This document shows positions 17,567-44,329 of a stretch of 64,000 bases of DNA, piece by piece. The DNA is from Alphaproteobacteria bacterium (GTDB taxonomy: Bacteria > Pseudomonadota > Alphaproteobacteria > UBA828). Within the stretch, counting starts at the first letter, position 1. Each line of letters opens with the position of its first letter. The stretch spans positions 32,001 to 96,000 of the forward strand of contig CBDEFM010000002.1 in NCBI GenBank assembly GCA_965237415.1, read 5' to 3'. Under the pieces are notes generated by a model. It had not been told where the DNA came from, did no database searches, and worked only from the letters and a program-made list of their open reading frames with translations. Both the position numbers and the translations under genes were made by a program.

Positions 17567-18855
17567 GTATCCGTTCCGTCAGGCCGTGGAACGGTGGGTG
17601 GACAGGAGTGGTAGGCGTCCGCTGAGGAAGGTGATTGGCTCGCTGTGCACGCTGGCTCCATTGGGCGGGCGGAGGATTCCACGGCGTGGCCGAACGGTTA
17701 TCGCGCCAGGCGAAGCCCTGGAGAGGAGGATGACATGAGCTGAAACCTCTCGTAGCGATCCAGCGGGTACGACTCCCGCCCGGCAAAGGCGCAGCCCGCC
17801 AGCCGGAAGCGAGTCTTGCATGGCGTGCGGCAACGCCCGTCGTGAAGCGTAGACAGCAGGTGATGAAGCGCCGCGGTAAGCCTCGAAATCGTAAATGATG
17901 ACGCCTTCATTGTTAATCGTGTGTGGGCAGCACCGGAAGCGCCGCTAATGGCGAGGCGCAACGGGACGTCCGGGGTCGTGGACCGGCGCAAAGTCACGGG
18001 ATGGACCGCCAGGGAACCTGGGAGATCCTGCTCTTGCCCGTGGGCAAGATCGCTGGAAAGGGGACGGCCAGTGTGAACAATCCAGACCCCGGCCCGTCGT
18101 CAGGTCTGCATGGCGGCGGGAGCGCCTTGGCGAACACGAACCCCGGCAGACGCCTGCGGAGCCGGCTGGCGAAATCAATAAGCCGAAGGACATGCAGGAG
18201 CAGGAAGTCGTAGCGCTCTGATAGTACCGCTGAAGGCGGGGAACCGTGGCCATCGGGACCCGCTCGAGGGAAGCGGAGCGTCATCTGCACAGACCCACTG
18301 ATGGGAAACGCTGGAGGAAACGCTGAGTTCCACCAACACGTACACGAAACAGCAGTGGATAGCCGAACAGGCGAGGGAGCATCCGGACCGGGTGTTCACG
18401 TCACTGCACCACCTGATCGACATCGATTGGGTGTCGGAGGCGTACCGACGGACGCGCAAGGATGGCGCGACGGGCATCGACGGCGTGACGGCTGCCGACT
18501 ACGCAAAGGACCTTGAGGCCAATCTCGAAAGCCTCCTGAGCCGGATCAAGTCGGGCAGCTATCGCGCGCCACCGGTGCGCCGCCACTACATCCCGAAGGC
18601 GGACGGCACGAAACGCCTCCTCGGCATCCCGACGTTTGAAGACAAGGTGGCGCAGCGGGCGATCCTGATGCTGCTGGAGCCGATTTACGAGACGGACTTT
18701 CTGCCGTGCTCGTACGGCTTCCGGCGCGGACGGTCAAGCCCACGATGCCCTCAGCGCATTGCGCACGGGCATCATCGAGCAGCGCCAGCGGTGGGTGATC
18801 GATGCCGATATCTCGAAGTACTTCGACTCGATCACACACTCCCACCTCCGGTCAT
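17567..18855 (+). mobile_element. ltrA: Truncated group II intron (class E-like RT), 5' ribozyme plus partial RT; 5' boundary approximate
   Basis: [51 protein letters not shown]. Frameshift near 18738; ends before YADD. Confidence 0.85.
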
Positions 18856-19352
18856 CCCGGTGATGACGCTGCGCCGCTGGCGGCAGTGGTGGCAAGAGAC
18901 ATTACCGGCGACGCCGGCATGGCGCTGGAAGCGGGGCGAGTTGGCAACGCCGCCCGATGAGGCGCCGCTGGTCTATCTGCTGCGTTCCATCCGGGGCCGG
19001 ACCCTGCGCTCGCGGCTGCTGCGGAGCCTGATCTGGCTTCTTCCGTGGACTGGTTTTTGCGCGCTCGGCGATGGCCGGGCGCGGCCCGCAGAAAGCGTTT
19101 CTGTCACGATCGCGTAGGGCGTTCTACACCGCGTCTTCCCGGACACCGGCCAGGGAGAGACGCGGTCATGGGCAGTGACAACGGCAAGGGCGACCGCGAC
19201 GGGTGGGCGCGTCTGCGCTTCGCGGTCGTCGGGCCGCTTCTGGCCTCGCCGCCGCCCAAGGGGCGGTTGCGGGCGGAGCTAGAGCGGCTGGCGCAGCAGA
19301 GCTGGGAACATCCCACCAGCGGCGGGCAGGTGCGCTTCTCGGCCTCGACGAT
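18856..19352 (+). mobile_element. Fragment of a DDE/Mu-like transposase element (accessory ORF end plus transposase start)
   Basis: TLRRWRQWW.. then MGSD..WARLRFAVVGPLLASPP..WEHP..VRFSASTI, abruptly joined to IstA. Confidence 0.55.
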
Positions 19353-20327
19353 CATGTGCATGCCTTCGCCTTCTTCGGCGGGGTTCCGCAATCGGTTCTC
19401 TACGACAACGACCGCTGCCTGGTGTCGCGCATTCTGGCGGACGGGACGCGCAGGCGGGCGCGGCTCTTCGGCGGGTTCCTGTCGCATTACCTCGTGCGCG
19501 ATCGTTACGGGCGCCCGGGCAAGGGGAACGACAAGGGCGCGGTGGAGGGTCTGGTGGGCTTTGCCCGGCGCAACTTCATGGTGCCGCTTCCGCGCTTTGC
19601 CGGCTGGGAAGCGTTCAATCTGCGGCTCGAGGAGCAGTGCCGCCGCCGCCAGGGCGATATCCTGCGCGGGCACCGAGAGACCATCGGGGAGCGCCTGGTG
19701 CGGGATCTGGAGGCCATGTCCGCGCCGCCGGCGGCGCCCTTCGAGGCCTGCGCCCAGGCTCCCGGACAGGTCAGCTCGCAGTCTCTGGTCCGTTACGAGA
19801 CCAACGATTACTCGGTGCCGGTGGCCTATGGCCATCGCGACGTCTGGGTGCGCGGTTACGTCGACCGGGTGGTGATCGGCTGCGGCGGAGAGGTCATCGC
19901 CCGCCATCCCCGGTCCTATGAGCGTGAGGACACGATCTTCGAGCCGATCCACTATCTGCCCCTGATCGAGCAGAAGATCGGCGCGCTGGATCAGGCGGCG
20001 CCTCTCGCCGGATGGGACCTGCCGCCCGCGTTCCAGACCCTGCGCCGCCTGATGGAGGCGCGCTCGGGCCGGGCGGGGCGGCGGGAGTATGTGCAGGTCC
20101 TGCGGCTGCTGGAGAGCTTCGGGCTGGAGGATCTCGATGGCGCCGTGAAGGACGCCCTGCGCCTGGGCGCCATCGGCTTCGACGCGGTCAAGCATCTGGT
20201 GCTGTGCCGGGTCGAGAAGCGCCCGCCGAAGCTCGACCTCGACGTCTACCCGTATCTGCCGAAAGCCACTGTCGGCAGGACCTCGGCCGCCAGCTACATG
20301 TGCCTGCTGTCGGAGGACGCGGCATGA
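19353..20327 (+). pseudogene. istA: IS21 transposase, 5'-truncated
   Basis: HAFAFFGGVPQSVLYDN..GNDKGAVEGLVGFARRNF..YSVP. Confidence 0.9.
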
Positions 20328-21088
20328 CGGACAGACCCCAAATCCTGCTGGCACACCACCTCAAGACCCTGAAGCTGCCGACCTTCCTGCGGGAATACGA
20401 GAAAGTGGCGCGCCAGTGCGCGGCCGAGGCCCTGGATCATGTTCAGTTCCTGGCCCGGCTGGTGGAGCTGGAACTGATCGATCGCGAACGGCGCATGGTC
20501 GAGCGGCGCATCAAGGCAGCGAAGTTCCCGGTCGCCAAGAGCCTCGACAGCTTCGACTTCAAGGCCATCCCCGCGCTGAACAAGGCGCAGGTGCTGGAGT
20601 TGGCGCGCTGCGAGTGGATCGAGCGGCGCGAGAACGTCATCGCCCTGGGCCCGAGCGGCACGGGCAAGACCCATGTCGCCCTGGGGCTCGGGCTGGCCGC
20701 CTGCCAGAGGGGCCTCTCTACCGGCTTCACCTCGGCCGCCGCGCTCGTGCACGAGTTGATGGAAGCCCGCGACGAGCGCCGCCTCCTGCGGCTCCAGAAG
20801 CAGATGGTCGCCTGCACGCTGCTAATCATCGACGAGTTGGGCTTCGTGCCGCTGAGCAAGACCGGCGCCGAGCTTCTGTTCGAGCTGATCTCGCAGCGCT
20901 ACGAGCGGGGCGCCACGCTCATCACCTCCAACCTCCCCTTCGACGAATGGACCGGGACCTTCGGCTCCGAGCGCCTGACCGGGGCGCTGCTCGACCGTCT
21001 CACCCATCACGTCAACATCCTCGAGATGAACGGCGACAGCTACCGCCTCAGCCAGAGCCGCGCCCGCAGAAACAGCGCCGATAGCTGA
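20324..21088 (+). CDS. istB: IS21 helper ATPase
   Basis: GPSGTGKTH, LLIIDELG, TSNL, LLDRLTHH; right end ...GGCGTTGACA at 21356. Confidence 0.95.
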   Translation: MTDRPQILLAHHLKTLKLPTFLREYEKVARQCAAEALDHVQFLARLVELELIDRERRMVERRIKAAKFPVAKSLDSFDFKAIPALNKAQVLELARCEWIERRENVIALGPSGTGKTHVALGLGLAACQRGLSTGFTSAAALVHELMEARDERRLLRLQKQMVACTLLIIDELGFVPLSKTGAELLFELISQRYERGATLITSNLPFDEWTGTFGSERLTGALLDRLTHHVNILEMNGDSYRLSQSRARRNSADS

Positions 21089-33329: not shown

Positions 33330-33612
33330 GCGGGTAGAGCTCATGACCGCCTTCAACCAGCTACACAGGCAGCGTTAGAGAAGAAGATCGACGAGATCGT
33401 TACAGCTATCCATGAGACCGGCTTCAGCCGCGCTCTTACGGACCGGCTGCACAAGTTCGAGGCCGGCACTAAGAACTGCAACAACGTCTTGCAGCCGTTC
33501 CCCCCAAGATCTCAGACATCCATCCGAATATCGCCGGCATTTACGCCCGGAAGGTCGCATGCCTCGCGGAAGCGTTTGAAAAGCCCGATGAACGGGACGC
33601 GGCTGCGTCAGC
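33330..33612 (+). pseudogene. Serine recombinase-like C-terminal remnant
   Basis: SDIHPNIAGIYARKVACLAEAFEKPDERDAAA. Confidence 0.5.
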
Positions 33613-35513
33613 CAACTACCGCCACGTCATCCATTCCTTGAAGAGGAAGCCGATGGCGCTGCTGAACCTGGTCTACCGCGACGCCCTGTTCCCCCGCGAC
33701 GCTTATCGGCGCTGCTTCGAGGCGGCCCTGGAGCGGTTCACCGAGCGCGAGGCCTGCCGGCTCACGGTGACCCTCCTGGCGCTTGCCCATGAGGAGAACT
33801 GCGAGGCCGAGCTGGCGGCGGCGATCGACGGCATCCTGGACGAGGGGCGGCTACCCGCCCCCAACGACCTCAAGGCGCGCTTCGCGCCGGACCCGGGCAA
33901 GATGCCCAGGATCGACGTCACCAGGACGCATCTGGCCGGCTACGGGTCTCTGCTGAGCGCAGGAAGTGCGTCATGACCGGCAGCGACGACCTCACGGCAA
34001 CCGACCCCAACAAGGTCGATGCCATCAAGCTCTCCCTGATGCTCGCCACCAGCAGCCGATCGAAGCCCGGCCGCGACGTTCCGCCTCCAGAGCGGCCGAG
34101 ATCCTCGTCGATAATCACGGGCTCGTCCCAGCCCAGACCGCGAGCCCGATCCGCAAGGCCGTACTGACGACGGCGGCTCTCGTGGTTGTGCCGCAGCTGG
34201 TCCGGCGTCGACTGCCGAATGTAGACGACCGCCTCGCGTGCCAGATGATCAGGCGCGATCTTGTTCATCGCCCGCCTCCTTCTCCGTGGCCGTCCCGTCC
34301 GCCATGTCCTCCGTCGGGTTCGCTGCCGCTTCGAGCAGCAGCGCCGCCAGTATCGGGATTACCGCCCCTCGCATCGCCGGCGTGAGTGCCGGACCCGGCT
34401 CCAGTAGTTCCAACAGCTCTCCCTGTCTTCCCATGTCGCCCTCCCAAATCCATGCGGGAGGGCGATGGTAGAACAGCGTCGATGTCCGAACGGAGGTCGC
34501 GCAGGGCGTCCACCGTAGCGCGATCCGCGGCTGATCCGTCACCGTCATCGCCGCCGCGTCTGGAAAGCACATCCAGGTCGGTATCTGCGCCAGCGTGCCA
34601 TCCGGCTGGCGGACGACGTAGATCATGGTCCCCTTGAAGCGGTGGCGCCGAACCACTTCCACGCGCTGGCCCGTGCGGGGGTGGAAGGGGTAGTGGATCT
34701 TCGTCGGACCGCCCTGGTATCGGGCAGTGTGTGGCTGTTCCGCCCGGCGCCGGCAAAAGCCATCTTGCCTCTGCCATCGGCCTCGCCCTGGTCGAGAACG
34801 GCTATCGCGTACTCTTCACCCGCACCACCGATCTGGTGCAGCGCCTGCAGGTGGCAAGGCGTGAGCTCGCCCTGGAAAGCCAGCTCGCAAGGCTCGACCG
34901 CTACCATCTTCTGATCCTCGACGACCTCGCCTACGTGCAAAAGGATCAGGCCGAGACCAGCGTCCTCTTCGAGCTCATCTCGGCGCGCTACGAAAGGCGC
35001 TCTCTTCTAATAACCGCGAACCAGCCCTTCGGAGAATGGAACAAGGTGTTCCCGGACGAGACCACTGCGGTGGCCGCCGTCGATCGCCTCGTCCACCACG
35101 CCACAATCCTCGAGATGAACGTCGAGAGCTATCGCCGCCGCGCCGCGCTCGACAGACGAAAAAGGGGACCGGGGCGGCCCGCCAAGATCGCCACCGAGAA
35201 AAACACCACCGAGGACTGAGCCACGCACGGGTGCCGCCCCGGCGGCGCTCACGCTCGCTCCCTGCGGCCCGTCGGCATCTCAGTCGGCGGGCCGCACTTT
35301 ACTCCACGCATCCCGGCCGCAATCCCCCACAGCGATATCGCACCGATCGATCATGCGGACGCTCCGCGACAATCTGTGTGTGTCGCGCCGCGACAATCAA
35401 CGAGACGAAGGCCCTTGCAATGCCCGACGCTGCCCGCAATCATGCGCCCGCCGCTGGCGCCGGGAATCTCACCCTGATTGACGCGCGGCTCTCATCCAGA
35501 TCGTCGCGCTATA
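33613..35513 (+). mobile_element. Disrupted IS21 element: istA 3' part (to 33976), split istB (33973-34043 and 34734-35219), right end
   Basis: YRHVIHSLKRKPMALLNLVYRDALFP; PGAGKSHLASAIG..LILDDL..AVDRLVHH; CGCGACAATC repeats near the end. Confidence 0.85.
34044..34733 (-). mobile_element. Truncated large serine recombinase (34044-34268) with upstream accessory ORF, inside istB
   Basis: MNKIAPDHLAREAVVYIRQST..IDEDLGRSG..RPGFDRLL; upstream KIHYPFHP..QPDGTLAQIPTWM. Confidence 0.8.
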
Positions 35514-36115
35514 AGTGGGCTCGGGTGGGGTGAAGAGGCCGTTCGCGCACTGGCGTGCTGTAGCGGCACCCGATGCTAAGCCTGGTCCGAACCATTTTGT
35601 CGCCTCGGTCACTGATGGCGCGGGTTTCCCGCGACCTCGTTGTGTGCCCAGCATGCTCGGTAGCTGGGAAGTGAAAGTCTTCTATCCAACCTGATGGAGG
35701 TGAAGGATTAGCAAAGCGCAAGGGCATCCCCGCGAGGTGGTGTCTGAAGGAAGCGTGGAGCAAAACCGCGACCTGACGAACAGAAACCGGATATGAGGCA
35801 GGCTTGGTCGGACGAGCGGGCAACGGATCGCGAAGTCCATATCCATCAAGGCCAAGTTTGTAGATCCGGCAGGTGTGCGGGGAAGGCGACCGAGCTTACC
35901 TGGGGAGGCCTGTGCCGTGTTCCAAGTCTGGAACTGAGGGAACTGCAAGGGGACCTGATCGCGGCGCAGGAGTCAGCAGACGGCATAGTAGGTCAGGCAG
36001 TCGGCAAAGCTATTTAGGCACTCCAAGGCCGAGAGGTGGAGCAACAGATAAGCCGAGCCGGTAACGATGGCCGAAGGCCTGAACGATTGGAAGCGGCAAG
36101 TAGGACGGACAACTC

Positions 36116-36923
36116 ATGCGTGGAAAGCGGCAGAACATCCAGTACTCACTGGCCTTGGAACTATCTGAGCGGGGTGAAACCCTGGTCGGCGGCTACCAAG
36201 GGACCGAACCACCTGTGGCGAAGCCCGACCCCGAAAGCCCGGCCTTGGCGGAACAGCTAATGGAGGAGATGTGCGGGCGGGAAAATTGCGAAACTGCGTG
36301 GAAGCACGTTCGAAAGAACAAGGGCGGTCCCGGCGTCGATGGGATGACCATCGACGAGGCCGCGGACTACCTGCGTGAGCACTGGCCAAGCATTCGGTCT
36401 CAACTGCTCGACGGAACCCACCAGCCCCAGCCGGTCAAGAGGGTCGAGATACCCAAGCCGGACGGCGGGGTCAGGAAACTCGGCGTCCCCTGTGTCGTCG
36501 ACAGACTGGTCCAGCAAGCCGTGTTGCAGGTTCTTCAGGCGCAATGGGACCCGACGTTTTCCGAACACAGCTACGGGTTCCGCCCGGGGCGCTCGGCCCA
36601 TCAGGCGGTGGCTCAGGCACAAGCGTATATTGCTGAGGGCTACGGTATCGTGGTTGACATCGACCTCGAAAAATTCTTCGACCGTGTCAACCAGGACCGA
36701 CTGATGGCTCGCGTTGCCGAACGGGTCTCCGACAAACGGGTACTCAAGCTGATCCGCGCCTTTCTCAAGGCCGGAGTGATGGAAGACGGGCTGGTTTATC
36801 CGGTTGACGAGGGGACCCCGCAAGGCGGTCCGCTTTCGCCTCTCCTGAGCAATCTCGTGCTCGATGAACTCGACAGGGAACTGACACGACGCGGCCACCG
36901 GTTCTGCCGGTACGCGGATGACT
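36116..36923 (+). CDS. ltrA: Class C intron RT/maturase, exon 1 (to YADD)
   Basis: GVDG, PVKRVEIPKPDGG.RKLGVP, HSYGFRPGRS, GTPQGGPLSPLLSN, RYADD. Confidence 0.93.
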
Positions 36924-37276
36924 GTGTGCCACGAAGGCACGAGGAGGCTGAGATGATTTAGCCACCGAAGGGCCGTGCTGCACGAGAGATGGGGGTCGGC
37001 CCCCCGGAGCCGCCGTGCAGGCGGAGGCTTCAAACCACCCACTGCTGCTGTGTTCAAGAGACATGGTAGTGAGCGAGTGGGAAAAGGCAGGGCAATACCC
37101 TGTCAGGTAGGGATCGCGGAGTCGAACGCAAGTGAACCACTGTCAACGTGTCGAAAGCGTGTGGACGACGTCAAAACCGAGGGGTAGTCGTTACCTCGGG
37201 ATGAGTTCGGAAGGAACCTGCTTACTGACCGAATGGCGTCCGGCACAAAGGTGGCGAGACCGCGATCCAGGCTCTT

Positions 37277-38871
37277 CGGAACCTGTCAACGACTTTGAGA
37301 CAGTGACGATTGCGATTTACTGAGCAGTTTCTCCTGTTGTGGGTGTCACAGGTAGGTTGATCCAGACGGCTTGGGGAAGGGGATCCGGTTGTGGGATCCC
37401 TCGAACGAAGCGTTCGGGATGACGGGTCCAGGCGGCTTGAAGGGTCCGCCCGCGCTGCTCCAGCACGCTCTGGGTTCGATTGTGATGCACGTCGTCCGGG
37501 GTGAGCATCGCGATCCCGCCATGGCGATGTTCGGTGTTGTACCAAGGGAAGAACGTTCGGCAGAAGGCGATCGCGGCGGTGATGTCGTGGAAGCGGCCAG
37601 GGAAGCCGGGGTGGTACTTCAGGGTCTTGAACTGCGCCTCGGAGAAGGGGTTGTCGTCGGACACCTGAGGGCGGCTCAGTGAACGGGTCACGCCGAGGTC
37701 GGCGAGCAGTTGTGCGGTGCACTTGCTCGTCATCGGCGCGCCGCGGTCGGAGTGCAGGGTGAGCACCTGGGGCTGGACGCCCTGTTTGTGGCAGGTCTCT
37801 TCGATGAGACGACCGGCCAGCGCCGAGTTCTCCCGGTCTGCGACCATCCAGCCGACCGCGTAGCGGCTGAAGATGTCGAGCACGACGTAGAGGTAGAAGT
37901 ACGTCCACTTGGTCGGCCCCAACAGCTTGGTGATGTCCCAGGACCAGGTCTGGTTCGGCGCCGTGGCCACCAGCTCGGGCTTGATGTACTGGGGATGCTC
38001 GCGCTGATTGCGCCGCTCTCGGACCGGCTGATCGGCGGCCAGGATCCGATACATCGTCCGCTCCGAGCACAGGTAATGGCCTTCGTCGAGCAGCGTCGCC
38101 ACGACCTCCGCCGGCGCACGGTCGACGAAGCGCGGGCCGGCGAGCACATCGAGGATCTGCTCGCGCTCGGCTTCACACAGCGCCCGGGCGGGCGTTGGAC
38201 GGGGCTGCCGGTGCCCGGGAGTTGACCTCTGACGACGGTAGAAGGTCGCCCGTGACACGCCCAGTGCTTGGCAGGCCGGCGCCACGCCGACCTGCGCCGC
38301 AAGCGGTTGGACCGCGATCAAGAGCGCGTTCCGTGTTCGAGGTTCAATCCCAGCAGCCCGGCAACTTTTCCCTGCACGTCCAGGATCGTGTGCGCGGTGT
38401 GCAACTCGTGCTCCAGGCGAGCCACTTGCGCCTCGAGCGCGCGCACCTTCGCATCCAGCGGGTTGCGTTCGGCCGGTTTCGCGCCGCGCTTCTTCGCGGC
38501 CAACTCCCGCAGCGAGCCCTTGCGCCGCGCCTTGCGCCAAGCCGTCAGATGCGAGCTGTACAACCCCTCGCGGCGAAGCAGGCGGCCCACCTCGCCGGGC
38601 TGTGTGCAGCGATCCGCCTCCTCCAGAATCCGCAGCCGATACTCTGCGGTGAACTGGCGCCGCTTCGGCTTGGCCACAACCTCCGGGTCCGGGGTCGGTC
38701 TGGCGCGGCCGGCCCTGGGGGCCTCGTCGCTACGCTCCTCGACCCCCAGGGCCGGAACGGAAACCTCATTCAATGTCATCGAGTCTCTCTCTGCGGTCAT
38801 CGGTTTTCACCTCCGCCGCCCTACAGAAATTCCAAAGGTTGCTGGTGTCTCAGTGATGTTGGCAGAGAGGG
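37277..38871 (-). mobile_element. IS3-like element (orfA 38318-38800, orfB 37317-ca.38320) inside the inner intron ribozyme
   Basis: KRRQFTAEYRLRIL; WSWDIT, LHSDRG, DNPFSEAQFKTLK; subterminal inverted repeats; CTT duplicated at 37274 and 38872. Confidence 0.9.
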
Positions 38872-39072
38872 CTTGTGCGGAACGTGGGAACCTGTCGCTT
38901 CGATGCCAAGGAAGAACCGCAAGTGGAGGCCCCACGAGCGGGAGAGTACCGATGCGGAGCACAGGGGCGGAGCGACCCGTAGTAGCGATGAAAGTTCTGT
39001 AATGGGGCTGGAGCGAAGGGGTTGCCCTATGCGGTTCGGGAAGTCGGGGCAACCGGCGACGGGAGGACCTTG

Positions 39073-40317
39073 ATGGACCGGACGAAGCCGTTTCCCATCA
39101 GCAAACGTCAGGTCTGGGAAGCCTGGAAGAAGGTGAAAGCCAATCAGGGTGGGGCGGGGATTGACGGCCAGGCAATAGAAGCGTTCGAGGCCAAGGTTGG
39201 AGACAACCTGTACATGCTTTGGAACCGCATGGCGTCGGGCAGTTATCATCCGTCTCCGGTTCGACGAGTTGAGATTCCCAAGGCGGACGGCGGCGTTCGT
39301 CCGCTGGGGATACCAACGGTGGAGGATCGGGTAGCCCAAACGGTGGTGAAAGAGGTACTGGAGCCGGAACTGGAAAAACACTTTCATTCGGACTCCTACG
39401 GCTATCGGCCGGGGAAATCGGCTCACCAGGCACTGGGGCAGGCGCGAGAGCGCTGCTGGCGAAGTGACTGGGTGCTGGATCTCGATATCAGGTCGTTTTT
39501 CGACACGTTGGATCACGACCTGCTGCTTCGCGCAGTGCGCCGCCACACCGACGAGAACTGGGTGGTGCTGTATATCGAGAGGTGGCTGAAGGCCCCGGTA
39601 ATGCTGCCGAGCGGGGAGGTAGAAGAGCGGGATCGAGGCACGCCCCAAGGGGGTGTCGCAAGTCCGTTGCTTGCCAACCTGTTCCTGCATTATGTGTTCG
39701 ATTTGTGGATGGAGAGGCACTACCCGGCCATCCCGTTCGAGCGTTATGCCGACGATATCGTCTGCCATTGTCGCAGTGAGCGGCAGGCACACCATCTGAA
39801 GGGCGCACTGACACGTCGCTTTGAAGCCTGCGGGCTCGCGCTGCACCGGGAGAAGACGAAGATTGTCTACTGCCAGGACAGCGATCGACGAGGGAAGCAC
39901 CCCGTAACATCCTTTGACTTCCTGGGCTACACGTTTCGGCCCCGGCGGTCGAAGAACAAGTGGGGCGGGTTTTTCGTCAGTTTTAGTCCGGCGATCAGCA
40001 ACAAGGCGGCGAGAGCGATTCGGCGGGAAATCAGGAGTTGGAATCTGCATCGACGCAGTGACAAGAGCCTTGACGACCTTGCCCGAATGTTCAACGCAAC
40101 CATCAGGGGGTGGATCAACTATTACGGGGCCTTTTACAAGTCGACCCTCTTTGCCCCCTTGCGGATGATCGACAGGAGGCTCGCGCTTTGGGCCACGCGC
40201 AAGATGAAGCGTTTTCGGGCGCATCGGAGACGCGCTGCGCAATGGGTTGCCGACTGTGTTCGCCGGGACCCTAACCTGTTCGCACATTGGCGCGTTATTT
40301 ATCGTACGGCTGCATAG
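39073..40317 (+). CDS. ltrA: Group II intron RT/maturase (RmInt1-like, no endonuclease domain), intact
   Basis: KPFPISKRQVWEAWKKVKAN, RPLGIPTVEDR, GTPQGGVASPLLANLFLH, ERYADD, FDFLG, GWINYY. Confidence 0.95.
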   Translation: MDRTKPFPISKRQVWEAWKKVKANQGGAGIDGQAIEAFEAKVGDNLYMLWNRMASGSYHPSPVRRVEIPKADGGVRPLGIPTVEDRVAQTVVKEVLEPELEKHFHSDSYGYRPGKSAHQALGQARERCWRSDWVLDLDIRSFFDTLDHDLLLRAVRRHTDENWVVLYIERWLKAPVMLPSGEVEERDRGTPQGGVASPLLANLFLHYVFDLWMERHYPAIPFERYADDIVCHCRSERQAHHLKGALTRRFEACGLALHREKTKIVYCQDSDRRGKHPVTSFDFLGYTFRPRRSKNKWGGFFVSFSPAISNKAARAIRREIRSWNLHRRSDKSLDDLARMFNATIRGWINYYGAFYKSTLFAPLRMIDRRLALWATRKMKRFRAHRRRAAQWVADCVRRDPNLFAHWRVIYRTAA

Positions 40318-40394
40318 GAGGAGCCGTGTGAGCCGAGAGGTTCAAGCACGGTTCTGTGAGCGCCTCGGGGTGAGATTCCCCGGGGCGACTCGAC

Positions 40395-40969
40395 GTAACA
40401 TCTACGTCCGCAGCCAGCGCGCCGGCGAACGTGTCATGGCCTCCGTGGCCAGGTTCCTGACCACGACGCTACGGCTCAAGGTCAACGAGTCAAAGAGCGC
40501 GGTCGCGCGACCGGAGGAGCGCAAGTTCCTGGGGTTCAGCATCGCGAATGATGGGAGCGAACGGCGCATCGCGCCGCAAGCTCTCGCGAAGTTCAAGGCG
40601 CGAATTCGGGACCTCACAAGCCGGACGCGGGGAATAAGTCTGCACCGGATGATCGAAACGCTAAAGCCATACCTGATGGGCTGGCGCGGCTACTTCGGTT
40701 TCTGCCAGACCCCGCGCGTGCTCACGAACCTGGAAGCGTGGATACGCCGAAGACTGCGTGCGTATCTGTGGCGACAGTGGAACAACGGTCACAAACGCTT
40801 CAAGGAGCTCCGCCGCCGGGGACTCTCAAAGGACCAAGCCGCCATCGCCGCTGGCTCGCCGACGGCGTACTGGCGCATGGCCGGACATGTGGTGGTCCAG
40901 CAGGCCCTACGCAACCACCATTTCGACTCGCTCGGCCTCCCCAGACTCTACACCCCTGCTGCGGCCTAA
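40395..40969 (+). CDS. ltrA: Class C intron RT/maturase, exon 2
   Basis: NIYVRSQRAGERVM..LKVNESKS..KFLGF..GWRGYF..WIRRRLR; 808+575 nt = 461 codons in frame with exon 1. Confidence 0.92.
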
Positions 40970-41120
40970 TTCGGTCGAACCGCCGTGGTACGGACCCGTA
41001 TGCCCGGTGGTGTGGGAGGGGCGGCATCGTGAGATGCCCCCCTATCCCGATCAAGAGAATGGGACTTCGAACATGGTTCCTCCCCGCTCGCGACGGAGAT
41101 GAAACCTGGGAGGATGTTCC

Positions 41121-42539
41121 ATGGCGCGCAAGTCTCGAAGAACCCAGCGCCTCAGGGTGGTGAACCCGGACTGCGCAGGGATCGACATCGGCAAGGACCG
41201 GCATTTCGTGGCGGTCGACCCGGAACGCACCGAGGAGCCGGTGCGTTCGTTCGGCGCCTTTACCCGCGATCTGGAGGAGATGGCGGCGTGGCTAGCGTCG
41301 TGTGGGGTGACCAAGGTGGCGATGGAATCGACCTCGGTCTACTGGATAGCGGTCTACGAGACGCTGGAGCGCGCGGGCTTCGAGGTGATGCTGGTGCCGC
41401 CGCGCATGACGAAGCAGATCGGCGGGCGCAAGAGCGACGTGTTGGACTGCCAGTGGATCTGGCAGCTGATGTCCTACGGCCTGCTGCGGGGAGCGTTCCG
41501 TCCGGGCGACGAGGTTTGCCCGCTGCGCTCCTACGCACGCCAGATGAGGCGGCTGACCGGGGACCGCTCCCGCTGCGTCCTGCACATGCAGAAGGCGCTG
41601 ACCGAGATGAACGTCAAGCTCGACTCGGTGATCGCCAACATCGTGGGACTGACCGGCCAGCGCATCCTGCGCGCGATCATCGACGGCGAGCGTGACCCAG
41701 AGCGCCTGGCGACGCTCCGCCACCGGGGCATCAAGGCCGACGCCGATACGATCGCCGCGAGCCTTCAGGGGACGTGGCGTGAGGAGCATCTGTTCGCCCT
41801 CGAACAGGCCATGCAGCGCTACGACTTCCTGACCCAGCAGATCGACGACTGCGAGGCCCGGGTGATGGCCGAGATCGAGCGCCTGACACCGCCGGACGAT
41901 CTCCCGGACGGCGGCGCACCGGACCATGCCCCCGGCACGACCTCCGAAACCGCGTCGAGCCGCTCTGCGAACGCCGCAAGCAACTACACCGGCAAGGAGG
42001 GCATCCAGGCCCTGGCGTTGCGCGGAATGATGGGCGTCGACCTCACCGCGATCCCCACCATCGGTCCCGGTACCGCACTGGTGATCGCCTCGGAGATCGG
42101 CCCGGACTTCTCCGCCTTCCCCTCCGCCCAGCACTTCTGCTCCTGGCTTGCGCTCGCGCCGGGAACCAGGATCAGCGGCGGCAAGAACCTCCCCGGCAAG
42201 TCCCCGAAGGCGGTCAACCCCGTCGGGCAGGCCCTGCGCATGGCGGCCATGGCCGCGCGCCGCAGCGAGACCTTCATCGGCGCCAAGCACCGCGCAAGGC
42301 TCGCCCGAATGGACACCCCCGTTGCGATCAAGGCGACCGCCCGCGAACTCGCCTGCCTGATCTACCTCATGGTGACCGAAGGCCAGAAATACGTCGAGCA
42401 GGGCATCGACGCCTACGAGAAGCGGCGCCTCAACAGAAAGTTCGCTCATCTCGACCGCCAAGCCCGAAAACTCGGGCTCCAACTCGTCCCGGCACCGCAA
42501 AACGACGAAACGCAAAACTCAATGCCGTCAACTGCTTAG
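41121..42539 (+). CDS. IS110-family DEDD recombinase/transposase, intact
   Basis: CAGIDIGK, MESTSVYW, KSDVLD, IPTIG..IASEIG, SWLALAP..ISGGK; GGAGG RBS. Confidence 0.95.
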   Translation: MARKSRRTQRLRVVNPDCAGIDIGKDRHFVAVDPERTEEPVRSFGAFTRDLEEMAAWLASCGVTKVAMESTSVYWIAVYETLERAGFEVMLVPPRMTKQIGGRKSDVLDCQWIWQLMSYGLLRGAFRPGDEVCPLRSYARQMRRLTGDRSRCVLHMQKALTEMNVKLDSVIANIVGLTGQRILRAIIDGERDPERLATLRHRGIKADADTIAASLQGTWREEHLFALEQAMQRYDFLTQQIDDCEARVMAEIERLTPPDDLPDGGAPDHAPGTTSETASSRSANAASNYTGKEGIQALALRGMMGVDLTAIPTIGPGTALVIASEIGPDFSAFPSAQHFCSWLALAPGTRISGGKNLPGKSPKAVNPVGQALRMAAMAARRSETFIGAKHRARLARMDTPVAIKATARELACLIYLMVTEGQKYVEQGIDAYEKRRLNRKFAHLDRQARKLGLQLVPAPQNDETQNSMPSTA

Positions 42540-43462
42540 GCAACTGTTACTCAAGAGCGCGCTTTGTTGACCCCCCGCAATCCAGCCAGATCATTGGGTT
42601 ACCGCGCCGATCGGCACCGAACCCGTGCGCCGATCAACAGTCGATCCCTCGCCGGAGACCGTCGAACACTATCGCGTCCAGGTTCGAACCTATCTCGACA
42701 TGACCGGCGCCGACCGGGGCTTGATCGTCATGATGACCGGCGGGAGGGTCGTCGAAATCCGTGGCCAGGGATGACGGATATAAGGCGGTGGGAGCGTGAC
42801 AGCTTCCGGGGGCGGAGATCGCTCTCGCGAGGCCCGGCGAGCGGAGAACGGATGAAGCGGCGGTGATCGTGGCAAGCCAGGTGAGAGCCAGCTAAATTGG
42901 TTTCCACACCAGAGACGGGCGACGGAAGAATGGCCGAGTCTGGATTTCCGACGTTTTGCTCTGCCGACTTGCGCTTTATCGGCGACATGTTCTCCGACCC
43001 GCTGACCAGGGCCATCCGAAACGACATACTCTCGTTTCGCGCACCAGTCTGGTCCGAGGATGCACGCCGCGTCCTGACCGTACTTGGCGACGGGCGGTTT
43101 GATGCCGTGGCCGTTGCGATCCGGAGAGGCGCTCTGCGTTTCGCCGTGACGCCGGACTGGTCCTCGGGGATTCAGGCGATCGAGAGCGTTTTCGCGCTGA
43201 AGCGCCGGGCGCATCTGTTCCGGGCCGCGCCTTCGGTAACCTGGTTGTTAGCGACGGCTTAGGAATGCGCGTATTTGCTGCATTTCTGGAGTTGGACGTG
43301 GTCGGCGGTTGATGCTGACGATCAATCCGAGGTGCCTCCAGGGTGCGTCATCGACATCGGGGTCGCGGCGGTAGCCGAGGGATCGCGCGACGCCTTCGAG
43401 GGGATAGGCTCTCAGGGTCTCGGCCTGCACCCGCCCGTACCATGGCGAGAGACGATCTATGA

Positions 43463-44329
43463 CTACGCCGCCGACGGCGGCTCGCGGTCCAGGGCGTCGG
43501 CCTTTCCGGCTCGCCGACGGCCTGCTGCGCCCCGGCGGCGGCGGCGCTCTGCGCTGCGCTTCTTCTGGCGTTCCTCGGCCTCCTTTCGGCGATAGGAATC
43601 GCCGTCGATGGCGATGATCTCGGCGTTGTGGATGAGGCGGTCGACGAGGGCGACGACGCAGGCGGCGTTGGGGAAGGCTTCGCTCCACTCGGCGAAGGGC
43701 CGGTTTGTGGTGATTATGGTGGAGCGCTGCTGGCTGCGGCTGGAGACGATATTGAACAGCAGATCGGCATGGCGATTGCTATAGGAGAGGTAGCCGACCT
43801 CGTCGATCACCAGCAGCTGTTGGCGGGCGTAGAATCGGAGCTTGCGCTGGAGCAGGCTGTCGCTATCGAGGGCGGCGAGCTCACCGAGCATGTTTCCTGC
43901 AGTTGTGAAGCGCACGGTGTGCCCCTCGATGATGGCGCGGTGGGCGAGGTTGGCGGCGATGGTGGACTTGCCCACCCCGTTTGGGCCGACGAGGACGACG
44001 TTGGCGGCCTCGCGCAGGAACTCGAGGCTCATGAGGTCCTCGATGACCATTGGGTCGCAGCGGCGGGGCCAGTCCCAATCGAAGTCGACGAGGGGCTTGA
44101 AGTGTCCAATGCGGGCCTCGCTGAGGCGCCGCTTGAGGCTGCGGCTTCGCCGTTCTTCCTCTTCCCAGGCGATGAGGGTGGGCAGCCAGCTGCACTCGCC
44201 GATGTCGTCCCAGTGGGCGATGAGGCCGTACAGGCGCAGCGCGCGGGCACGGTCCTTGAGGGTATCGTAGGCGGTCCTGCGCGGCCGCAGCGCCTTGACG
44301 CGGGCGTCGGTCAGGATGACCTTGGGCAT
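43463..44329 (-). CDS. istB: IstB-like ATPase fused in frame to a 22-aa integrase N-terminal stub
   Basis: MPKVILTDARVKALRPRRTAYD followed by LKDRARALRL..GPNGVGKS..LVIDEVG..LVDRLIH. Confidence 0.8.
   Translation of the reverse strand: MPKVILTDARVKALRPRRTAYDTLKDRARALRLYGLIAHWDDIGECSWLPTLIAWEEEERRSRSLKRRLSEARIGHFKPLVDFDWDWPRRCDPMVIEDLMSLEFLREAANVVLVGPNGVGKSTIAANLAHRAIIEGHTVRFTTAGNMLGELAALDSDSLLQRKLRFYARQQLLVIDEVGYLSYSNRHADLLFNIVSSRSQQRSTIITTNRPFAEWSEAFPNAACVVALVDRLIHNAEIIAIDGDSYRRKEAEERQKKRSAERRRRRGAAGRRRAGKADALDREPPSAA

Follow-up and report, generated by a model that had tools for sequence, protein, structure and literature searches.

Four nested mobile elements in an alphaproteobacterial genome: a probable fossil stack with a group II intron inside an IS110 bridge-RNA gene

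Introduction

Mobile elements that lie one inside another raise the question of whether they still work as an ordered chain, each layer releasing the next, or whether they are the remains of successive insertions. We address this question for positions 35514-42557 of a 64,000-nucleotide stretch from Alphaproteobacteria bacterium (UBA828; NCBI GenBank assembly GCA_965237415.1, contig CBDEFM010000002.1, positions 32,001 to 96,000 of the forward strand), the whole of which is hereafter called the window. Here, an IS110-family element (35514-42555, plus strand, left end cut) forms the outermost layer and contains a class C group II intron, which contains a class D-like group II intron, which in turn contains an IS3-family element. 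An initial annotation of this DNA proposed a dependency chain, in which loss or tolerance of the IS3 element permits the inner intron to splice, inner splicing supplies the outer maturase, and outer splicing then leaves an intact IS110 leader RNA, with the whole 7 kb able to move as IS110 cargo. We argue that the nest is probably a fossil stack, built by four successive insertions that each followed the invader's own targeting rule and later cut on its left side, and that it is decaying and not a working cascade.

Results

The nest and its emptier forms

The nest occupies 35514-42557 on the plus strand, and all of its junctions are exact, having been read from the sequence and then compared with uninterrupted relatives. 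From outside to inside, the layers are IS110, class C intron, class D-like intron, and IS3; one group II intron within another, with definable boundaries for both, makes the middle of the nest a twintron. This four-level order and its clean junctions had been described in the initial annotation, and both were borne out by family matches and by the uninterrupted relatives. A search of 41 related genomes with a 7.5-kb stretch gave some match in 24, and the emptier alleles that the annotation had suggested looking for were found at every level, both in related genomes and in contigs of four public runs (three RNA libraries and one DNA run). The three clean removals that had been predicted, leaving one CTT for the IS3 element, YADDC for the inner intron, and CTCGTT|CAAGAG for the outer intron, match relatives that lack the insertion sequence (IS) or the intron.

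In all four public runs, contig joints skip exactly 5410, 3471, and 1598 nt, for the outer intron, the inner intron, and the IS3 element, respectively. Because the same joints are present in the DNA run (X1) as well as in the RNA runs, they represent emptier DNA alleles of related strains and provide no evidence for splicing; the junctions for which RNA data were to be searched are there, but not as a product of RNA processing that could be told from DNA. Under a bridging rule of at least 31 letters on each side, contigs across 35641|35642 and 36923|36924 (30 and 28 letters on the shorter side) were not counted. In no public run did the share of the nest's sampled words exceed 0.70. A gap in cover at 39316-40319 in three runs was considered as evidence and rejected, as it proves nothing.

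Loss of the IS110 left terminus

The IS110 element carries an open frame for a 472-aa RNA-guided transposase (41121-42539, plus strand) with the DEDD (RuvC-like) and Tnp domains of its family (DEDD_Tnp_IS110, PF01548; Transposase_20, PF02371). It scores 264 bits against NF033542 (cut-off 140) and shows no indels relative to the multicopy elements of genome G004 (G, C, and L numbers are our handles for genomes, contigs, and loci). The left end of the element is in two parts. The first (35514-35641, plus strand), the 5' portion of the bridge-RNA gene described below, shares 92-97% identity with the left ends that intact 1707-bp elements have in G004, G005, and G013, and the second (41052-41120, plus strand) begins with CAAGAG. 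The two are contiguous in all intron-less copies, which confirms that 35514-35641 belongs to IS110. The right end (42540-42557, plus strand) reads ...GTTACTCAAG up to 42555 and is followed by an AG core at 42556-42557; identical right ends are found in copies of G004, G005, G011, G008, and G013. At the core begins an 84-nt genomic repeat (42556-42639, plus strand), the usual target of this IS110, of which the source genome has four other, IS110-free copies. Several IS110 copies of G004 and G013 sit at the same point of this repeat.

Position 35514 had been taken for the natural left end, and is instead a truncation point. Alignment of the left sides of twelve copies places the start of the intact element about 78 nt further left, at ...TGTTGTTA|AGCCTCCACC..., and homology in the window begins at 35514-35518. 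About 74-78 nt of the IS110 start, left terminus included, are therefore absent from the window, which holds only one of the two termini of a complete element, and a search of the source genome for positions 1-78 of the intact element found no match anywhere. In place of the lost end, the window has an IS21-family remnant (33606-35513, plus strand), whose right end ...GTCGCGCTATA adjoins IS110 and which includes the C-terminal part of IstB_IS21 at 34731-35219. The genome has two further copies of this remnant; both stop at this same base and lie among unrelated neighbours.

With its left terminus gone and no second IS110 in the genome, the window copy would be unable to move, one of its recombination ends having been lost. 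Transport of the whole 7 kb as IS110 cargo, as originally envisaged, thus fails for want of a left terminus that no other copy could supply, and the leader RNA that splicing was thought to restore would come from a left end without its first 74-78 nt.

Other copies of these elements have features of their own. The IS21-family remnant is interrupted at 34043-34820 by a 778-bp repeat with five other genome copies (88-97% identity), and the remnant copy on contig C1 carries a 2.4-kb insert with a group II reverse transcriptase (RT) gene. In L013 (G004:C1:4336500-4345500) and L020 (G005), IS110 forms head-to-tail tandem arrays in which a right end abuts the next left end, and the boundary ...CTCAAG|AGCCTCC... 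is the junction expected of a circular form.

An IS3 element in a conserved intron hairpin

The innermost layer is a 1595-bp IS3-family element on the minus strand (37277-38871), flanked by CTT duplications at 37274-37276 and 38872-38874. It has two overlapping frames on that strand, orfA (38318-38800) and the orfB frame (37317-38540), which share 38318-38540, and a DDE transposase recognized by the family model: the orfB frame scores 184 bits against NF033516 (cut-off 160), orfA aligns to profile positions 2-76, and Pfam finds rve and HTH_Tnp_1. Two other copies fix the ends, one in G004 at 99.3% identity and one in the source genome at 84%, and the 3-bp target duplications that accompany the terminal repeats read CTT, CTT, and GAT in the three copies compared. 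IS3 elements usually end in TG...CA; this one has other ends, with an imperfect inverted repeat (20 nt, 75%).

The element lies antisense between ...CAGGCTCTT and GTGCGGAACGTGGGAACCTG, two halves that form a small hairpin in the consensus fold. IS-less relatives (G027, Sinorhizobium meliloti, and a 91-94% identical G004 fragment) read GGCTCTTGTGCGGAAC across the site, and relatives of the inner intron without the IS were found at L017, L018, L021, and L026. The sequence of the split hairpin is conserved in 8/8 relatives, with RTs down to 53% identical. Such conservation suggests that the inner ribozyme is probably crippled by the IS3 element, and it runs against the proposal that the IS is tolerated and the inner intron still splices.

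Elsewhere in the source genome, outside the window (C2:2312000-2325300), an IS3-like copy (82-84%) is split by about 2.9 kb, and two group II intron RT genes lie on either side of it as inverted duplicates.

A bridge-RNA gene at the IS110 left end

Alignment of left ends indicates that this part of IS110 encodes a bridge RNA, the guide of which covaries with the flank. We compared 36 left ends, 28 from metagenome contigs and 8 from genomes, and omitted L059, which has too little upstream sequence; three of the 36 could not be aligned in their 5' part and were set aside, leaving 33. The pentamer before a conserved AG agrees with the left flank of its own element, all five positions matching in 24 loci and four of five in the other nine; 11 distinct pentamers are represented (the matches are a hand count, without a mismatched-pair control). 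Across these alignments the pentamer behaves as a programmable guide. In the window, the pentamer predicted to guide the left target half (TGCTA) lies, together with the AG core, at 35574-35580 (plus strand, from flank matching), and one empty target repeat in the source genome reads TGCTA|AG, a perfect match to it.

At position 35576, contigs of all four public runs have T and not C, which turns TGCTA into TGTTA, the form found in G004, G013, and G041. By this difference, the window copy is a variant whose guide matches a target-repeat variant within its own genome.

The consensus fold has two loops. In the helix that closes the second (GAACCAU/AUGGUUC), 3/7 pairs covary and no non-pairs occur among seven sequences. 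This second, or donor, loop contains a conserved hairpin (35617-35636, plus strand) that is near-invariant in seven aligned left ends, where two of its pairs change between G-C and G-U. In 9/10 loci, the segment CRAGAG equals the right end plus core, with covariation of the A/G difference in three. A left-target guide and a donor segment, both expected of an IS110 RNA, are therefore present.

The segment GCGTGCT, which matches the G004 right flank, was tried as a guide and rejected, as it does not covary in G008, G011, or G014. Rfam searches of the intact left end gave no bridge-RNA family, the best match being an unrelated long non-coding RNA (E = 0.53). Consensus scans of the left end for promoters and terminators found 0 promoters in intact and window copies alike and are, for that reason, uninformative.

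A class C intron inside the bridge-RNA gene

The bridge-RNA gene is split by the 5.4-kb insert between 35641 and 41052. This insert is the outer group II intron (35642-41051, plus strand), which measures 5410 nt as found and 1939 nt without its own insert. Its junctions read CTCGTT|GTGTGCC ... CCCGAT|CAAGAG, and intron-less IS110 elements (many copies in G004, and others in G005, G013, G011, G008, and G014) read ...CGCGACCTCGTT|CAAGAGAATGGG, the exact product of removing 35642-41051. The intron sits 5 nt after the donor-loop hairpin and directly before CAAGAG, the match to the right terminus and core. The group II domain I-IV motif RF02001 is found at 35726-35895 with 140 bits, and domains V and VI lie at 40978-41051 (plus strand, RF00029).

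The RT gene of the outer intron is divided by the inner intron. Its first part (36116-36923, plus strand; RVT_1) has 269 codons and one further nucleotide and ends in ...RYADD + T; the second (40395-40969, plus strand; GIIM) starts with the GT that completes a Cys codon and continues for 190 codons and a stop. Against TIGR04416, 36116-36922 aligns to positions 2-215 and 40397-40966 to positions 218-353. The two pieces are collinear with an uninterrupted Mesorhizobium RT, with the break at locus positions 2789|2790, and the total of 460 codons is like that of this relative. Overall, the intron shares 83% identity with 1.95-kb introns of Mesorhizobium plasmids, which are uninterrupted.

Two features place the intron in class C, as the initial annotation had done. 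Among solved RTs, the outer RT is closest to those of class IIC (GsI-IIC, 316 bits; two other IIC RTs, 222-226 bits), followed by LtrA (120 bits) and a cyanobacterial IIB RT (88 bits), and Pfam finds RVT_1 and GIIM only, with no endonuclease domain. In addition, the insertion site follows a terminator-like hairpin: the window has a hairpin and TCGTT, the G010 relative a terminator hairpin and TTTTTT, and the Mesorhizobium relative a hairpin and TTAGTT. Class C introns are described as inserting after terminators or at attC sites in the available text of PMC4424553.

Repeated homing or a composite element

When one genome per species was scanned for the left-end/intron pattern, the junction turned up in two more records, G013 and G041. 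In G013, a full left end is followed by an intron that is cut after 410 nt. In G041, both IS110 and the outer intron are complete, the intron is uninterrupted, and the element lies at another genomic site as the sole IS110 of that genome. The window and G041 agree at 1279/1282 and 657/657 positions of the intron, 1366/1419 of the transposase gene, and 121/125 of the left end; the window and G013 are 94% identical in the left end and 98.8% in the intron part. Near-identical introns thus occupy one hairpin site in three diverged IS110 variants. As the introns are more alike than their hosts, the intron copies are younger than the IS110 elements that carry them.

Could IS110 and the class C intron nevertheless be a composite that moves as one unit, with the intron as cargo? 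Such a unit would account for the same junction in three genomes, and G041 lends it some substance. Both IS110 ends are present in that copy, its insertion site (TTGATA|AG) is unlike that of G013 (TGTTA|AG), and it has no IS110 companion, so that, had it moved there by transposition, either its own interrupted bridge-RNA gene worked or a helper-bearing donor was needed. Against a composite, the window and G041 differ by 3-4% in IS110 but have introns of 99.8-100% identity, and the G013 contrast between left end and intron favours separate homing. The intron is also absent from the metagenome left ends, all of which are uninterrupted (0/29; the junction scan gave 0 matches and the control scan 29 left ends), and from the IS110 copies seen in G004, G005, G011, and G008. 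We therefore consider a composite unlikely, although it is the alternative that survives best; repeated homing into the hairpin would fit these comparisons better than composite transposition.

By analogy with the IIC-attC introns, which took the integron attC as their site, a class C lineage may have taken the bridge-RNA hairpin as its homing site, perhaps with the result that splicing gates IS110 mobility. We offer this as a tentative proposal, somewhat more doubtful than probable. If it is true, a complete composite of the G041 type would need its guide RNA to be spliced before recombination, and the window would need two nested splicing steps. If such a complete composite is active, it would represent a natural splicing-dependent guide RNA, with a bearing on both the regulation and the engineering of bridge recombinases.

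The G041 contig (C11, L035) is recorded as a Dehalococcoidia metagenome-assembled genome. It carries IS110 and the intron at 97-100% identity to the window, and also holds 99%-identical IS3 pieces and one 84-nt repeat. These elements are otherwise found in the alphaproteobacterial genus of the window, which points to either a binning error or a recent transfer.

A class D-like intron at the YADD codons

The inner intron (36924-40394, plus strand) is 3471 nt long, or 1873 nt without the IS and one CTT. Its junctions read GATGACT|GTGTGCC ... CTCGAC|GTAACATC, with GT..AC ends. Uninterrupted relatives read GACGACTGCAACATC, encoding YADDCNIY, at this site; for example, the G010 relative and the Mesorhizobium-plasmid relative (83%) read ...TATGCCGACGACTGCAACATCTAC (RYADDCNIYV) across it. 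Domain V/VI is found by Rfam at 40319-40394 with 55.8 bits. The intron has its own RT/maturase (39073-40317, plus strand), an open frame of 414 aa in which YADD is present and which scores 447 bits against TIGR04416 (positions 2-352 of 353).

This RT has RVT_1 and GIIM domains and no endonuclease domain, and its identity to the outer, class C RT is 42%. Closer relatives reach 64-66% identity, with 66% for the RTs of introns on S. meliloti, Bradyrhizobium elkanii, and Shigella plasmids, and the RTs of multicopy introns on S. meliloti pSymA are 53-54% identical to it. The latter introns occupy an IS630-family transposase gene or adjoin IS66 elements and have 419-aa RTs; from copy number, the 419-aa open reading frame, and the neighbouring IS families, we infer that the copies at L071 and L072 are of the RmInt1 and RmInt2 type. 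The domain I-IV motif RF01999 matches the inner intron at 36991-37108 with 122 bits and these presumptive RmInt1-/RmInt2-type copies with 118 and 114 bits. A search of the PDB with the inner RT also gave IIC RTs as best matches (176 bits), by which the class is not decided. The missing endonuclease domain, RF01999, and the RT relatives agree with the earlier description of the intron as class D-like, with the class references themselves assigned as above.

The inner intron appears to recognize its site by base pairing. The loop of exon-binding site 1 (EBS1), AGTCGT at 37186-37191 (plus strand), is complementary to the six bases that end the 5' exon, ATGACT, one of the pairs being G-U. Relatives show a compensatory change: the G004 loop is TGTCGT and its exon ACGACA, and the S. 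meliloti loop is AGTCGT and its exon ACGACT.

Insertion sites were examined for eight relatives of the inner intron, and 4/8 lie at the same codon position after YADD in the RT gene of another intron. The S. meliloti pSymA relative (L021) sits one base after YADD, with two such copies in the record; the relative on a B. elkanii plasmid (L030) is at the same post-YADD position in a class D-in-class D twintron; the Rhizobium sp. T1470 relative has a 5' exon reading RYADD; and the relative on a Shigella sonnei plasmid (L022) has only a 3' exon, FVVH..., left. By Rfam, the host intron of the B. elkanii twintron carries RF01999 and that of the S. meliloti twintron RF02005. The other four relatives lie elsewhere: by eye, two are in a gene reading WHLDE and one is in a gene with the end ...KSADD, and one is unassigned. 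This intron group would thus use the most conserved motif of a retroelement as its homing site and silence the host RT until splicing. A literature search for introns at the YADD of another group II intron gave only the Thermosynechococcus elongatus paper discussed below, and the supplementary tables of surveys may already list such twintrons.

Discussion

Assembly of the stack

We postulate that the stack arose in successive steps. IS110 (1707 bp) would have been placed first, at ...TGYTA|AG|CGCGC... of the 84-nt repeat, steered by its bridge-RNA guide. The class C intron (1939 nt) would then have retrohomed into the bridge-RNA gene, 5 nt past a hairpin that mimics a terminator, and the class D-like intron (1873 nt) into the class C intron, one base after the YADD codons, through pairing between EBS1 and intron-binding site 1. 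Next, the IS3 element (1595 bp, CTT duplication) presumably landed antisense in the conserved hairpin of the inner intron. An IS21-family element and a deletion may account for the loss of the first 74-78 nt of IS110, left terminus included, probably as a later event.

Several observations weigh against this account or parts of it. All four protein frames are open, which is unexpected for a long-dead stack; in our view, this argues for recency only, and the open frames would reflect recent insertion and not function. Contigs from the RNA libraries cover most of the nest, so that transcription is possible. That the split hairpin is essential to the inner ribozyme is deduced from its conservation. 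The contrast between intron and host identities, on which repeated homing rests, could instead stem from recombination between IS110 copies. For the bridge RNA, candidate guides for the right halves of target and donor were compared by eye with right flanks in four lineages and gave no consistent match, so that the two-loop model is only partly verified. Domains V and VI of the outer intron score 30.5 bits against RF00029, below the 40-bit cut-off; in the G010 relative, the corresponding stretch reaches 44.1 bits. Finally, among the public runs compared, no read or contig spans the whole nest.

Is the chain working?

The logic of the proposed dependency chain is sound as far as the required steps go, since the outer maturase could be obtained only if the inner intron splices. 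Several features would also be expected of a chain that still runs. As the initial annotation stated, there are open frames for the IS110 transposase, the inner RT, and IS3; the outer RT is open on both sides of the inner intron. Moreover, every layer is exactly removable, with each emptier form occurring naturally, and most of the region is represented in RNA-library contigs. However, nothing shows the chain in operation, and it is broken at both ends. At the outer end, the left terminus with the first 74-78 nt is gone from the genome and there is no second IS110 to help in trans; at the inner end, IS3 splits a hairpin kept in 8/8 relatives, and precise excision of IS3 elements is rare. The three apparently spliced joints, which also occur in DNA run X1, are DNA alleles of related strains. 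A working chain, from loss or tolerance of the IS through inner splicing, outer maturase, and outer splicing to the leader RNA, with the 7 kb moving as cargo, is for these reasons highly improbable, and we favour a decaying stack.

That the nest is an artefact of repeat-induced assembly, which the wealth of repeated mobile elements in the region and the lack of a single read or contig across the nest might suggest, is barely credible: misassembly is unlikely in a source genome without a second copy of IS110, outer intron, or inner intron to mislead the assembler, the nearest IS3 copy is merely 83-84% identical, the junctions fall at biological ends (intron GTGTG...AY, 3-bp duplication, restored reading frame), and the IS110/intron junction is seen again in two other assemblies.

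Relation to known systems

Taken by itself, the nest adds one more example to a known kind, and its depth is a curiosity, not a discovery. According to the available text of two sources (PMC2882425, PMC4424553), Thermosynechococcus elongatus has TeI3/TeI4 twintrons and TeI4g::ISEL2f, and Methanosarcina acetivorans has intron nests up to five deep. As far as these texts go, the window resembles known twintrons in that an intron has homed into a conserved site of another, in or near the RT gene, and known nests in that an IS has landed in an intron and the location is outside housekeeping genes. It differs from T. elongatus, in which the text of PMC2882425 places the site at the start of the open reading frame, by having the YADD codons as homing site. 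Unlike in known twintrons, the two introns of the window differ in class (C outside, D-like inside), and unlike in known nests, the outermost host is an RNA-guided IS110, with an IS3 inside as the fourth layer.

Beyond depth, the locus offers two advances, an intron inside a bridge-RNA gene and an intron group that lands on YADD codons. With regard to the first, the outer intron is like other class C introns in having no endonuclease domain, an IIC-like RT, and a position few bases past a DNA hairpin, and a close relative follows a true terminator. The hairpin in the window is unlike class C sites, as it is neither a terminator nor attC but a stem of the IS110 bridge RNA. Searches of the literature text available brought up no account of a group II intron within a bridge-RNA gene; one paper names both, separately, and the other one found deals with repetitive extragenic palindromic targets.

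The window IS110 shares with IS110/IS621 the DEDD and Tnp domains (NCBIfam 'IS110 family RNA-guided transposase'), a long non-coding left end with two loops and segments that match the target flank and donor end, a two-base core, and a genomic repeat as target. IS110 elements are reported to target repetitive extragenic palindromic sequences (PMC1525189). Unlike a close relative of IS621, the window transposase scores just 29 bits against it, in a weak alignment. The guides found here lie on the 3' sides of the loops in our fold, a further difference from IS110/IS621.

The second advance concerns the inner intron. The available text of PMC5894124 describes RmInt1 and RmInt2 of S. meliloti as class D introns that target ISRm2011-2 and ISRm17, and that of PMC3552965 mentions that the C-terminal extension of class D maturases has a signature. 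Like RmInt1 and RmInt2 (class D / IIB3), the inner intron is without an endonuclease domain. It shares RF01999 with the presumptive copies of these introns, to whose RTs its own is 53-54% identical, and some of its relatives lie in apparent transposase genes (read by eye). It is unlike them in that its closer relatives (64-66%) form a group of their own, with half of the sites examined at YADD.

Other elements in the window

Another group II intron is found at 17770-21088 of the window, with RF02005 at 17770-17985 (122 bits). Its RT is N-terminal only (open reading frame 18392-19117, RT-like to about 18740) and is followed by IS21-family genes, with a Mu-transposase C-terminal domain at 19203-20327 and IstB at 20012-21088, so that it looks like a further intron cut by an IS. 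At 43246-44267, a 1022-bp repeat with two 99.9%-identical genome copies overlaps an IS21-family IstB gene (43463-44329, minus strand).

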